Shown here in pieces: positions 35,321 through 57,646 of a DNA stretch of 64,000 nucleotides; positions within the stretch are counted from its first letter, which is position 1; every line of letters starts with the position of its first letter. Both the position numbers and the translations under genes were made by a program. This stretch comes from a virus, in the IMG/VR virus record IMGVR_UViG_3300022745_000020, positions 83,903 to 147,902 of that record. One strand, given 5' to 3'. Below the pieces are notes generated by a model. It was not told the origin of the DNA. It saw only the letters and a program-made list of their open reading frames with translations, and did not search any database.

Positions 35321-35794
35321 ATGAGCAAGACGAAAACCGCTGAAGGTCACGTGAGCGTGGCCGACATCTCCGCCAAGCTGCGCGACGAGGTCAAGGAAGT
35401 CGACGGCAAGCTGAACATCGACGGCGAACAGTACTACGTCCACGGCAACAACGAGGGGCTGAGTCGCCAGACACTCGACCACGTCGAGAACTACACCGGA
35501 CGCTACGCGGCTGCAGCTACTCTGGCCATCGGCAGCGCCGCGCACGACCTGATCGTCAACGGCGCCAGTGAGAGTGGAGTGGTCGAAGGTGCTGCCGAGA
35601 TCGGCCACAAGAGCCTGGAGGTGGTCTACAAGAAGGAACACTCCTTCACTCCCCCCGGTGGCGAAGCCCGTACCGTGCATGGTCACACCACTGTGCGAGT
35701 CGTGGACAAGCTCAAGGAAGTGCGTGCCGTTCGCAAGGAGCTGCAATCCGCAGCTGCTGCGGTGTGGGGAGCCCCCGAGGGCAACAACAGCTGA
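35321..35794 (+). CDS. hypothetical protein, codon bias suggests high expression
   Basis: 157 aa, RBS GAAAGGA, C/G-ending codons. Confidence 0.85.
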   Translation: MSKTKTAEGHVSVADISAKLRDEVKEVDGKLNIDGEQYYVHGNNEGLSRQTLDHVENYTGRYAAAATLAIGSAAHDLIVNGASESGVVEGAAEIGHKSLEVVYKKEHSFTPPGGEARTVHGHTTVRVVDKLKEVRAVRKELQSAAAAVWGAPEGNNS

Positions 35795-52521: not shown

Positions 52522-52840
52522 TCAGACTCAGTCTATCTTACTGGAGTATGCATTCGATGCTCTGAGTCAGGAGAGTTTCTCCAAGTACTTGGAGCTGCTG
52601 AGAAAGCACCGCAGTGATGCGCATGCTCTACAAGTCAGTCTGATGGCATATATCCTAGAGCAGATGCCTTGTTGTGATCGCTGGCAAGCCATCGATGTCT
52701 TCACTCTGGTGTATCGACTGACTTGTAAATTGGCCTCACTCATCGAGTGTGGAGGTCATACTCGCCTAGCCTGCGCTCATATCAACTACCTGGGCGTGAT
52801 GACCATAGAAGCGGATTTCGATGTCAGTATCGATGACTGA
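52454..52840 (+). CDS. hypothetical protein (start uncertain, possibly TTG 52505)
   Basis: Fills the gap in a co-oriented operon. Confidence 0.6.
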   Translation: MKTISPSLCRSRSYLLSLDCYDDQTQSILLEYAFDALSQESFSKYLELLRKHRSDAHALQVSLMAYILEQMPCCDRWQAIDVFTLVYRLTCKLASLIECGGHTRLACAHINYLGVMTIEADFDVSIDD

Positions 52841-52890
52841 CATCACACAGAGCACATGTGCTGTAGAGAGTCTAAACCAAAGGTGACATC

Positions 52891-53277
52891 ATGAGTCTGG
52901 CCATCAATTCTGAATACACATTCACCATGAGATCGCCTGCGATCTTGGGTGCATCGTACGACGCCACACTGCTGGCAGTCCTGGGCTGGGATACCGCTCG
53001 CGCACTGCAAAGTGATCTGGCATTTACCCATCAGGCTGTATTGCCCGATCTGCCAGCAGGCACTGCAATGAACGTGGCTGATCTGGAATTTTATCGCATC
53101 AAGACTGCGGTAGATACCCGAGTCATCTGTAAGGAGTGGCTTGCACGAGAGCCTGAGTTGATCGAGCGAAAGACCATCTCCATCATGATCCCCAATGCCT
53201 CTGCGGGATCTATCCCTTTGCTCCGAGAGCTACTCACTGCCAACGGCTTTGGTACGGTATATATCACCTCAGTGTGA
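52891..53277 (+). CDS. conserved core protein (phiKZ gp49-like by synteny)
   Basis: 128 aa, RBS AAGG, last gene before the DNA polymerase. Confidence 0.75.
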   Translation: MSLAINSEYTFTMRSPAILGASYDATLLAVLGWDTARALQSDLAFTHQAVLPDLPAGTAMNVADLEFYRIKTAVDTRVICKEWLAREPELIERKTISIMIPNASAGSIPLLRELLTANGFGTVYITSV

Positions 53278-53299
53278 TAACAGAAAAAATGTTTACACT

Positions 53300-53335
53300 C
53301 TCTACAGTGCTGAGTATATACTCAGCACTGTAGAG
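53300..53335. repeat. perfect 36-bp palindrome
   Basis: CTCTACAGTGCTGAGTAT|ATACTCAGCACTGTAGAG followed by a T-rich tract. Confidence 0.9.
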
Positions 53336-53368
53336 CTGTGTCTTTATTTATTTTTTATTACTTAATAG

Positions 53369-53493
53369 TATGGCCAAACATTCGGGCAAGGGTGGTTGGT
53401 TGCTGAAGGCCCTTAGGGGATGGTCGGCGTTTTCATGCTTTTCTTCCTTTCGCTATTAATACCACGGGGACTTCGGTCCTCGTGGTCTTTTTT
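53369..53493 (+). ncRNA. candidate small RNA or attenuator carrying a tract antisense to the DNA polymerase RBS and start codon
   Basis: TATG at 53369; stem AAGGG/CCCTT; C/U tract 53430-53453 complementary to 53552-53579; cUUCGg terminator. Confidence 0.55.
53461..53493 (+). terminator. classical intrinsic terminator with cUUCGg tetraloop
   Basis: ACCACGGGGAC-TTCG-GTCCTCGTGGT-CTTTTTT. Confidence 0.85.
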
Positions 53494-53570
53494 ATGCTCT
53501 CTATCTTTAAAAATAGAGTCGATCCATGAGGTGTTTCGATATAAGCGATGTGTGTGAAGGAAGATTAAAC

Positions 53571-55721
53571 ATGACAAAATTCGTAGATCCATTCGTGCTG
53601 CCTGTGGATCAGTATCGCAGGTGCATCAACCCGCTGGGTGACTACAAGGCAGATGCGGTGAGGTACCTGATGCTCATCAGCGGGGATGATGAGGCCTCTT
53701 GCACTCAGGCTGTGGAGCGCATGCTCGCTAAGGGTGGTGAGTTTGAGTTCAAAGATCCGAAGGTGGAGTACTTTGAGCGCGGTGAGAGTAGGGATCGTGA
53801 GCGCAAGGTGTCGAGCGCACTGAGGTACATCGGTGAGTCGATTAAAAGCGAAGACATCATCGCCCCTACGTTTACTACCTACATGCCTGCTAAGAGAAAG
53901 CGCTCTATCTTATCCATCGACGTGGATGAGAAGATCCGACTGCGCAGTGTGGCTAAGAAGGCTATGTTCAAAGCCCGTGCTCAGGGCGATACCTTCCATG
54001 CGAACTTCTACAAGAACGAACAAACGCAGCGCAAGCGCAGTAACAACTCACTGAGCGGGGCTGCTAACTCCACAGGTACTCCTTTAGCGAATAAGACGTC
54101 TCACAGCTCACTGACGAGCACGTGCCGCATCACCAGCGGCTACGGCAATGCTAACAACGAGAAGCTCCTCAGTGGCAATCGCCACTACTATCGCCACGAT
54201 CTGGTGATCAATAACATCATCTCGATCATCGGGCACACTGACTACGTGGCATTGAGTGCTGTGGTGGATAAGTACGCTCTACGCGTCCCTACTGTGGATG
54301 AAGTGATGAGCTGTATCACCTACTCTACAGATCTGTACTGGAAGTCGAGTCTGTGGTTAGAGCAAATCCGCACACTGGTGCAGAAGTTAAATGGACTGCA
54401 GCGTGCTGCATTTGTCTACACGGGTGATCTACACCAGGTGAGGATACTCAATCCGGATTTCATGAAGGTGTTTCTCGCTCAGCTGTGTAAGCGCTGTGAT
54501 TGCGATGATCTACCGGGTGCTCTCGATATCATCAAGTCCGCTATGGATAGTCACATCAACTTGGCTCATCAAATCTGCTCTGACTGCGTCAAGGGGCGTG
54601 GTAAGGAGTATGACAAGATGAGTCATACAGAGCTATCCACCATCGCAGCCACACTGAACAACATCGCTCAGGTGGTGATGAAGTACGCTGACTTTATCAA
54701 AGTCATCATGGTGAGTCCAAACATGCCCACCAATGTGGGGCAGTTTCCTCACTCCACTCGCAGGTCTGCAGTCACTTCCGATACCGACTCGACGATCTTT
54801 ACGGTGCAAGACTGGATCTCTTGGTATACAGGGGGTGAGTACTTTACGCCTGAGGGGATTGCTATCCAAGCAGGCATGACATTTCTGGCCAGCAGCGCAA
54901 TCACCCACTTGCTGGCGATGATGAGTGCGAACATCGGAGTGGAAAGAGATAAGCTCTTTCGTATTCAGATGAAGAGTGAATTCCGATTTGATGTGTTTGT
55001 GCCCACAGGGGTGGCGAAAACATACTTTGCATCGATTGCCTGTCAAGAAGGCGCTGTGTTCGAGCACAATGAACTCGAGATCAAGGGGGTGATGCTCAAA
55101 AACAGCAACAACCCAGCCGATATCAATGAGCAAACCAGTGACATGATCGAGCGCATCATGGAGACAGTCCGAGCGGGTAAGAAGATCCGTCTGCTGGACT
55201 ATATCCGCGAGGTCGCCGCTGTCGAGCAGCGCATCATGGCCTCAGTGCTCAAGGGTGAGACTCACTATCTGAAGTCGCTGAACATCAATTCAGATGAAGC
55301 TTATAGTGCCGATCCTGAGGATTCGCCGTTCCAAAACCATTTGTTCTGGGAACAGACATTCCAGGGCAGCTATGGGGTGATCAAACCGCCTCCATATAAG
55401 ACTTCGAAGATCTCACTGACACTGAAGAACGCGCAGTCGATCAAGAAGTGGCTCGATGAGATGGAGGACAAAGCTCTGGCTGAGAGACTGCGAGCATACC
55501 TCCTCAAGAAGAACAAGACATCATACTTGACCTTCTATGCTCCTGAGGAAGTGTTAGATAAGGCAGGAGTGCCCAAGGAAATTGCCTGTGTGGTCGATGT
55601 CAGAAAGATCGCCTCTCAGTTGTGCAAATCCTTCTATCTGATCCTAGAGACTCTGGGGGTGTATATCCACCAGAAGGATCTCAGGCGTCTGGCCAGTGAC
55701 TTGTTACAAGAATCCACTTGA
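53571..55721 (+). CDS. family B DNA polymerase, polymerase subunit (phiKZ gp50-like)
   Basis: Motif B KRSNNSLSG, motif C SDTDSTIF, KTY and EIKGV; RBS AAGGAAG. Confidence 0.9.
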   Translation: MTKFVDPFVLPVDQYRRCINPLGDYKADAVRYLMLISGDDEASCTQAVERMLAKGGEFEFKDPKVEYFERGESRDRERKVSSALRYIGESIKSEDIIAPTFTTYMPAKRKRSILSIDVDEKIRLRSVAKKAMFKARAQGDTFHANFYKNEQTQRKRSNNSLSGAANSTGTPLANKTSHSSLTSTCRITSGYGNANNEKLLSGNRHYYRHDLVINNIISIIGHTDYVALSAVVDKYALRVPTVDEVMSCITYSTDLYWKSSLWLEQIRTLVQKLNGLQRAAFVYTGDLHQVRILNPDFMKVFLAQLCKRCDCDDLPGALDIIKSAMDSHINLAHQICSDCVKGRGKEYDKMSHTELSTIAATLNNIAQVVMKYADFIKVIMVSPNMPTNVGQFPHSTRRSAVTSDTDSTIFTVQDWISWYTGGEYFTPEGIAIQAGMTFLASSAITHLLAMMSANIGVERDKLFRIQMKSEFRFDVFVPTGVAKTYFASIACQEGAVFEHNELEIKGVMLKNSNNPADINEQTSDMIERIMETVRAGKKIRLLDYIREVAAVEQRIMASVLKGETHYLKSLNINSDEAYSADPEDSPFQNHLFWEQTFQGSYGVIKPPPYKTSKISLTLKNAQSIKKWLDEMEDKALAERLRAYLLKKNKTSYLTFYAPEEVLDKAGVPKEIACVVDVRKIASQLCKSFYLILETLGVYIHQKDLRRLASDLLQEST

Positions 55722-57402: not shown

Positions 57403-57496
57403 ACACCTCTGAACTGGACAAACCATGCTCTTGTACCATTACTCCAAAGAACAGTATGACCACCTTCTCACCCCTCACCCATAGGAGATGACGTAA

Positions 57497-57532
57497 TCTA
57501 AAAAATTACAGTCCCATATCATCATAGTGAGC
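57497..57532 (+). promoter_or_regulatory. putative early promoter of chimallin
   Basis: TCTAAAAAATTACAGTCCCATATCATCATAGTGAG; shares AAAAAATTACAGTCC with the promoter at 365. Confidence 0.78.
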
Positions 57533-57646
57533 AAGATCACAACTGTCCTTTAAACGGGATGGTCGAGCTTACTTGCTCTGACGTCAGAAAAAGTGTTTCC
57601 TCTAAGTGTTTGTTTTTCCCCTGTTCTACAGCGAAAGGTCATGACC

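Follow-up and report, generated by a model that had tools for sequence, protein, structure and literature searches.

Why should a short stretch of DNA with the appearance of a complete transcription unit, running from a promoter-like motif to a terminator, stand directly in front of the DNA polymerase gene of a jumbo phage? We have examined this question for the intergenic region upstream of the polymerase gene (pol) in IMG/VR record IMGVR_UViG_3300022745_000020, within a stretch of 64,000 nucleotides (positions 83,903 to 147,902 of the record) that we call the window and whose own numbering is used throughout. The window is the right-hand 64 kb of a contig of 147.9 kb (~53% complete), and its source is an uncultured, chimallivirus-like (nucleus-forming) jumbo phage. 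An earlier note, made from the letters of the window, had proposed that this unit is an antisense or attenuator RNA that can cover the ribosome binding site and start codon of pol. We have found that the unit is a real, conserved and previously undescribed RNA family of a known kind. On the basis of modelled folds and duplexes, we tentatively favour the interpretation that it is a leader or small RNA (sRNA) that represses the initiation of pol translation. It would act in cis when the terminator is read through, and perhaps in trans as well; we rate this at a little short of an even chance.

Anatomy of the unit

A gap of 293 nt separates pol from the preceding gene, a gp049-like SH3DP gene at 52891–53277. 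Along the plus strand, this gap contains a palindrome, a T-rich block with ATAGTATG, ~90 nt of structured sequence, a CU-rich tract, a cUUCGg hairpin followed by T6, and a further 78 nt leading to the pol ATG (Table 1). The earlier note had placed the first TATG (53369–53372), the tract, the hairpin and the Shine–Dalgarno (SD)/ATG region of pol (53552–53579, in which GAAGGAAG precedes the ATG), and all of these coordinates are correct; the upstream palindrome that it mentioned is real. Hairpins are found at the same place as the palindrome in the related loci L003 and L004, with different sequences.

The motif ATAGTATG lies 199 nt upstream of the pol ATG. In phiKZ, TATG is necessary for late transcription by the non-virion RNA polymerase (nvRNAP) and its G is the transcription start site (PMC4666361), in agreement with the earlier note on the TATG motif. 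By analogy with these nvRNAP promoters, transcription of the unit probably starts at G53372. Of the 10 loci described below, 8 share exactly the sequence (A)TAGTATG, the exceptions being L253 (ATAATATG) and L005 (ATACTGTG); the enrichment of TATG in the intergenic DNA of the phage genome is 1.6-fold only.

The tract, with its core TTTTCATGCTTTTCTTCCTTTCGC at 53430–53453, is the reverse complement of an SD, a spacer and an AUG (GCGAAAGGAAGAAAAGCAUGAA). It is followed by the GC-rich terminator hairpin (53461–53486), with T6 extending to 53493. This had been described as the only textbook cUUCGg terminator of the window, and within the window there is indeed no other long cUUCGg hairpin with a T-run. 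The unit as a whole has a fold z-score of −2.5. A second TATG directly after the terminator is present in the window, in L004 and in the L251 group and is absent in L003, L005 and L254.

Table 1 Features of the pol upstream region and its candidate targets (window coordinates)
Feature	Position	Strand	Basis
Terminator-like palindrome, 16-bp stem, closing the upstream operon and isolating the non-coding unit	53300–53335	+	Hairpin seen in sequence
Promoter-like region, T-rich block then ATAGTATG; predicted start G53372 (last base of TATG)	53340–53372	+	Motif conservation and phiKZ analogy
Predicted non-coding RNA of ~122 nt, small RNA or pol 5' leader	53372–53493	+	Covariance model and hidden Markov model; no Rfam match; no conserved open reading frame
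Stem-loop 1, at the 5' end	53372–53401	+	RNAalifold helix 1: 89% of cells paired, 1 compensatory pair
Stem-loop 2, loop with GGGGAU	53404–53429	+	RNAalifold helix 2: 89% paired, 2 compensatory pairs
Unpaired CU-rich tract complementary to initiation regions	53430–53460	+	Most conserved part; unpaired in consensus structure
Intrinsic terminator, 11-bp stem, UUCG loop, U6 tail	53461–53493	+	All cells paired; 7/11 pairs changed on both sides
Second TATG directly 3' of the terminator, proximal pol promoter or TTAT of a phiKZ-type terminator	53491–53494	+	Sequence
pol translation initiation region, GCGAU ... GAAGGAAG ... CAUGA, predicted partner of the tract	53544–53576	+	Folds and duplexes; ATG at 53571
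Divergent family-B DNA polymerase, phiKZ gp050-like	53571–55721	+	phrog_2927 4.5e-236; PF20286
chmA initiation region, AGCGAAAGG-UCAUGA, second candidate target	57630–57646	+	9-nt exact complement plus CAUGA

Conservation and structure in relatives

Relatives were found with the polymerase as anchor, giving nine syntenic loci from other metagenome assemblies, which comprise relatives with pol 66–87% identical and members of their 90% clusters. The conservation that the earlier note had called for is seen in 10 loci, which comprise 7 distinct sequences in 5 lineages (pol 66–100% identical). At every one of the 10 loci the unit lies between the gp049-like SH3DP gene and the gp050-like pol, and it is better conserved than either flank; the flanking intergenic DNA and the pol leader diverge. 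In the consensus structure, standard pairs fill 94% of the pair cells and 10 pairs have changed in a compensatory manner, a combination matched by none of 500 shuffles; the terminator helix is 100% paired and holds 7 of the compensatory pairs among its 11. Covariation, for which the earlier note had proposed a test, is found within the helices of the unit itself. Within the tract, UUCAUGCUU...UUCCUUUC varies little or not at all among the 7 distinct sequences, and the consensus fold leaves it unpaired.

A covariance model and a hidden Markov model (HMM) of the family recognise exactly one copy in the phage's own 148-kb record and none in ~240 other loci fetched, so that matches are confined to the 10 syntenic loci. 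Rfam gave only sub-threshold chance matches over 52800–54000 (miRNA models on the palindrome, and STnc480 at 19 bits against a gathering threshold of 72), and BLASTN of the region against 50,697 phage records gave no match. Two degenerate pattern scans of IMG/VR returned >115 matches each. None of these was picked out as a member by the family HMM (nhmmer), and all are due to chance. When JGI metagenomes were scanned with the protein as anchor, only relatives ≤44% identical were found, all of which lack the unit.

Coding potential

Two open reading frames (ORFs) are open across the unit in the window, one of 29 codons (53370–53459) and a hydrophobic one of 45 codons (53420–53557) that ends at the pol SD, and an ORF from the conserved AUG of the tract is open for 16–40 codons in all four lineages. 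Neither of the two starts has an SD, and the closest relatives carry frameshifting indels and premature stops. In the 29-codon frame, a 1-nt indel in the loop of stem-loop 2 shifts the frame between the window and L003, its closest relative, and L005 has a stop after 14 codons. If the phiKZ rule holds, the first ATG would not be transcribed as such because the predicted start, G53372, falls inside it. The 45-codon frame is not conserved: it crosses the terminator, where the arms change in a compensatory manner and the loop has a 2-nt indel, the peptides beyond are unrelated, and in L004 the frame stops inside the hairpin. That the unit is a small protein gene is therefore very improbable.

Other readings were considered and rejected. 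The reverse complement resembles an SD with ATG, as if a gene began on the minus strand, but the length of the ORF there varies between relatives, at 7, 29 and 3 codons. The GGA loop motif of CsrA/RsmA type in stem-loop 2 is absent from L005. A role in an R-loop or a replication origin has nothing in its favour, the transcript being pyrimidine-rich.

Pairing of the tract with the pol initiation region

The tract was predicted in the earlier note to pair, over some 23 bp, with the SD and start codon of pol. RNAduplex of the tract with the translation initiation region (TIR) of pol gives ~22 bp at −19.9 to −20.6 kcal/mol, made up of 8 bp over GAAGGAAG, 5 over GCGAU and 5–6 over CAUGA. Equal or better pairing is reached by 2.0% of composition-matched shuffled tracts and by 1.9% of shuffled pol TIRs, and when 45-nt windows along the whole genome are compared, the pol site is among the best 1%. 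The native duplexes of the five lineages have energies of −20.6 (window), −19.2 (L003 group), −24.6 (L004 group), −21.8 (L251 group) and −8.7 kcal/mol (L005); the background for TIRs is −13 kcal/mol (sd 4). Pol is thus at ≤−19 kcal/mol in four of the five; the percentiles obtained were 6%, 7%, <1% and 93%, or 11–65% by the cofold ddG, in which the structures of the sRNA and the TIR themselves are charged. The SD regions of pol differ greatly between the lineages (UGAAGGAAGAUUAAACAUGA, AGCGAGUGAGAGCAUGA, GAGGAAAAAGAAGCAUGA, GGGGAAGAUGGAGCAUGA and CCUGGAGAUCGCCCAUGA) and therefore good pairing in four of five is not simple inheritance. Within the syntenic neighbourhoods of 9–15 genes, pol ranks 2nd of 9, 3rd of 15 and 2nd of 14 in three lineages. 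Duplexes of the whole sRNA, which ignore intramolecular structure, were swamped by the GC-rich hairpin arms and this result was not used.

For pairing in cis, we folded read-through transcripts of four lineages, beginning at the predicted start and extending past the terminator into the pol gene. Both the minimum free energy (MFE) structure and the centroid of 53369–53600 contain the tract–TIR pairing, which bears out the earlier hand-drawn duplex. In all four lineages the tract pairs with the SD and the AUG of pol in the MFE structure, although the SD regions differ. In the ensemble of read-through transcripts, the probability of pairing with the tract is 0.8–1.0 at the SD core and AUG, and that of TIR–tract pairing overall is 0.76, 0.70, 0.73 and 0.47 in the four lineages. 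As a control, 91 other good TIRs, all from the genome of the window, were placed in each leader; this control is independent of the choice of the tract, which had been set by its conservation and unpairedness. The sequestration of the native pol TIR was equalled by only 3, 5, 2 and 21 of the 91; the native TIR beats 94–98% of those swapped in for three of the four lineages. The Fisher-combined probability is ~0.003 with the lineages treated as unrelated. For a transcript starting after the terminator, the mean paired probability of the TIR falls to 0.32 in the window and 0.16 in L004, leaving it open; in L003 and L005 it is not open. Taken together, the modelled pairing is moderately better than chance and most convincing in cis.

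Complementarity to other initiation regions

The tract is a generic complement of initiation regions, and much of its complementarity would arise with any well-formed TIR. The TIRs of the phage have the consensus AAAGGAGAA...CAUGA; among 92 good TIRs, 53% carry C at −1, and CAUGA is the commonest start context. This consensus resembles the idealised TIR of which the tract is the reverse complement, and pol is therefore not a unique match. Taken as a set, the TIRs give stronger pairing with the real tract than with 99% of composition-matched shuffles, and 20 of them reach ≤−18 kcal/mol where 7.7 are expected, a number not attained by any of 200 shuffled tracts. The 9-nt matches that the earlier note had listed at chmA (57630), at the gene at 35321 and at a 708-aa minus-strand gene are all real.

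At chmA, AGCGAAAGG is conserved in the lineage of L003 and L249, and the match is kept in two of three lineages. The duplex energies are −21.7 kcal/mol in the window, −23.3 in L249 (where AGCGAAAGGA is kept) and −13.2 in L251, and chmA ranks first locally in two lineages and poorly in the third. Three lineages keep CAG(C/U)GAAAGG in the chmA TIR (window 57630–57646; L003:8820–8860; L251:9925–9965). This sequence complements CCUUUCGCU, the 3' portion of the tract; in L251 the two partners have both changed, giving G–U wobbles. About 190 nt upstream of chmA, at 57455–57500, a TATG (AGTATGACCACC) resembling the 5' end of the L004 sRNA is followed by CU-rich CCUUCUCACCCCUCACCC and may be the start of a chmA leader.

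Outside the window, at G000:C1:1073–1085 on the plus strand, a 13-nt sequence, CGAAAGGAAGAAA, is perfectly complementary to the tract; the genome has no perfect complement of greater length. It stands 5 nt before the ATG of a 69-codon ORF, where the crude ORF caller had placed a minus-strand gene.

Comparison with related loci and known systems

The polymerase is homologous to PhiPA3 gp047 and PHIKZ050, with an identity to the proteins of named phages of ≤43.5%. The cultured phages phiKZ, PhiPA3 and PA1C share a mutually homologous short terminated leader at the gp049–gp050 position (L248:485–685, L247:1296–1479 and L258:252–432), which consists of an upstream terminator hairpin with TATG, a conserved core AUGUGAAUGUAAKUUGAUGUG and a second hairpin with a U-run. 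The PhiPA3 leader contains a tract, GCGUGCUUCUCCCU, for which the SD and start of pol are the second best partner among 55 TIRs.

In more distant relatives, with pol 49–53% identical, the region between the SH3DP gene and pol is gene-free over 400–730 nt (L121:1878–2500, L122:548–1275, L123:2100–2500 and L124:1924–2500). It has an (A)TAGTATGC-like start in L121, L122 and L124 and ends in a long hairpin with TTATG in all four (CTATG in L123), and L121 and L122 are 84% identical over 336 nt. The region may hold a larger non-coding RNA at the same position.

The closest known parallel in anatomy is found in phiKZ, where premature termination in 5' untranslated regions (UTRs) yields abundant short RNAs beside read-through mRNAs. 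Seventeen candidates have been listed there, two of them confirmed by northern blotting and with functions unknown (PMC10914365); examples are TU237, 141 nt long, which precedes PHIKZ302, and a ~71-nt RNA in front of PHIKZ221 (Putzeys et al. 2024, PMC10914365). The unit resembles them in belonging to a chimallivirus, in having a phage promoter, putative here, with an intrinsic terminator <250 nt beyond it in the 5' UTR of a gene and no SD-preceded ORF (criterion ≥10 codons), in being conserved among close relatives, and in its hairpin with TTAT. It differs in that the phiKZ RNAs were detected by ONT-cappable-seq and northern blot whereas the RNA here is predicted, and the two have no sequence similarity; no function or tract complementary to a TIR is reported for the phiKZ RNAs.

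A parallel in proposed action is provided by T4. In long transcripts of its genes e, soc and 49, upstream sequence sequesters the SD and AUG, and promoter-proximal transcripts are translated (PMC3014915). In the leaders of e (lysozyme), soc, 49 and I-TevI, the upstream arm pairs with the SD and/or the AUG and blocks binding of the 30S subunit, and messages begun at a promoter situated between the arms escape this and are translated (PMC3014915). The window has a gene e-type geometry of tract, terminator, TATG and TIR, with sequestration of the SD/AUG predicted. In T4, by contrast, the arms pair as a local hairpin that encloses no terminator, and a stable small RNA is not made; the proximal TATG, a putative promoter, is present in only three of the five lineages studied here.

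The replicase of T4 and RB69 is itself under translational control, by the polymerase protein acting at a leader hairpin known as the gp43 operator (PMC3014915). The likeness lies in post-transcriptional control of a replicative polymerase, which here is proposed, through an RNA that includes the ribosome binding site; the difference is that the proposed repressor here is an RNA tract and not the polymerase protein. The earlier note had known of no RNA-level control of a jumbo-phage replicase, and we have likewise found none described, but for phage replicases in general the gp43 operator is a precedent.

Trans-acting sRNAs with C/U-rich seeds against the SD, known from bacteria and, as reviewed in PMC12197685, from phages, offer a further comparison. 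The unit shares with them a putative promoter of its own, 5' hairpins, a conserved unpaired pyrimidine-rich seed that complements SD/AUG regions and a U-tailed Rho-independent terminator. Unlike those that have been validated, its targets are predicted, it may be part of the mRNA of its own target, and it belongs to no Rfam family.

Proposed mechanism and its alternatives

From the anatomy, conservation, structure and pairing energetics, as observed above, we infer transcription, the efficiency of termination, timing and an effect on translation as follows. Transcription would start at G53372 of ATAGTATG, and most transcripts would stop at the strong cUUCGg/U6 terminator, producing an RNA of ~122 nt with two 5' hairpins and an exposed CU-rich tract of 30 nt. 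On read-through, the tract would fold back over the terminator hairpin onto the SD/AUG of pol ~100 nt downstream and close it, so that read-through messages would be poorly translated. Transcripts from the TATG at 53491–53494, where present, would be free of the tract, and their initiation region would be open. Acting in trans, the terminated small RNA could pair in the same way with the mRNA of pol and with messages sharing the motif, notably that of chmA. In L003 and L005 there is no TATG between the terminator and pol, and read-through therefore looks to be the sole TATG-driven route to pol; where this is so, the unit is in effect the pol leader. In phiKZ, antisense oligomers directed at the SD/AUG of mRNAs block translation, and knock-down of PHIKZ050 impairs the phage (PMC12571901); antisense occlusion therefore works on such messages.

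Several results count against this mechanism, and above all against a role specific to pol. By duplex energy pol ranks only 8th–9th of 142 crudely called TIRs, and by cofold ddG it is at the 11–12% percentile, so that the earlier expectation of pol standing above other regions and shuffles holds for the shuffles (~2% of which are as good) and fails for its rank in trans. The background set itself came from a crude ORF caller which mis-called chmA. The pol TIR of L005 pairs worse than the average TIR (percentile 65–93%, against 6–12% in three other lineages). The pairing register shifts between lineages, and when tracts and pol TIRs were exchanged between lineages in a swap matrix, native combinations were not preferred over foreign ones; there is therefore no strict covariation between tract and pol TIR. 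The generic nature of the tract, described above, belongs here too. The TATG after the terminator, missing from L003, L005 and L254, may be an element of the terminator, the phiKZ terminator motif being a hairpin with TTAT (PMC10914365), rather than a promoter. The PhiPA3 tract is not conserved in PA1C, and the phiKZ leader has no special pairing, since 23 of 51 control TIRs pair as well; leader–TIR pairing as a general feature of chimalliviruses is thus not supported, the case of PhiPA3 being suggestive. What stands of the original proposal is the unit itself and the predicted occlusion in all four lineages folded; an antisense regulator specific to pol has only partial support.

The principal alternative is that the unit is a trans-acting sRNA directed against the SD of many messages, a brake or temporal switch on phage (or host) translation, with its adjacency to pol incidental and pol either one target among many or of no relevance as a target. 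The excess of TIRs at ≤−18 kcal/mol, the agreement between the complement of the tract and the TIR consensus, the 13-nt match before the 69-aa ORF, the conserved chmA match and the 9-nt matches at two other genes are all as such an sRNA would have them, and 5' hairpins with an unpaired, conserved seed beside a U-tailed terminator are the classical architecture of base-pairing sRNAs. L005, moreover, keeps the RNA despite its weak pairing with pol. These points have to be set against the strict synteny with pol in 10 of 10 loci and the high local rank of the pol TIR, which is consistent in four of five lineages, while chmA drops out in L251. In L003 and L005 the unit is probably physically part of the pol mRNA, and the predicted targets have no common temporal or functional class. 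We consider this alternative unlikely, though it is the strongest of those that compete with cis repression of pol.

Somewhat less likely again is a purely transcriptional attenuator that sets the level of pol mRNA by conditional termination, the short RNA being a by-product, the complementarity to the TIR incidental, and the CU-rich tract a protein-binding or terminator-proximal element, for instance for Hfq, S1 or a phage factor. In its favour, 34 of 42 5' UTR terminators in phiKZ give a predominant short RNA or read-through mRNA, with >90% termination at T102 (PMC10914365). At gp049–gp050 a short terminated unit of unrelated sequence occurs in phiKZ, PhiPA3 and PA1C, without leader–TIR pairing in phiKZ, and non-coding units of 400–730 nt ending in a hairpin with TTATG occur there in distant relatives. 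An attenuator does not, however, account for the most conserved element being the unpaired tract and not the sequence of the terminator, nor for a match to the TIR that spans SD and AUG at the right spacing and beats composition-matched shuffles; no antiterminator fold competing with the terminator was seen by inspection. The probability left over beyond these readings may belong to no function at all.

Other features of the genome

A second non-coding unit running from promoter to terminator, ~300 nt long, follows a 643-aa gene at G000:C1:3392–3700 (window ~−80510 to −80200). It has the same start motif ACTAATAGTATG, CU-rich CCCUUCUUC and a strong hairpin followed by CTTATGCTG, and has no BLASTN similarity to the other intergenic units compared. 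In the whole phage genome, ACTTAA(A) is ~6-fold enriched upstream of genes and may belong to another promoter class.

Significance

To our knowledge, hardly any small RNA of a virulent or jumbo phage has been assigned a function. The unit described here offers a hypothesis that mutations can test, with a defined seed and defined partner sites on chmA and on the essential pol gene. A broader and rather doubtful extension is that nucleus-forming jumbo phages encode their own "antisense oligomer", an abundant sRNA whose exposed tract is the counterpart of the consensus ribosome binding site and start codon of the phage. It would gate the translation of pol, ChmA and other exported messages in the cytoplasm, with the same sequence acting in cis on read-through pol mRNA, and the phage would in this way time its replication programme or control its dosage. 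If confirmed, repression of pol by the unit would be the first case described in which the replicase of a chimallivirus is controlled by RNA at the level of translation, and a natural counterpart of the antisense-oligomer knock-downs that work on such phages.

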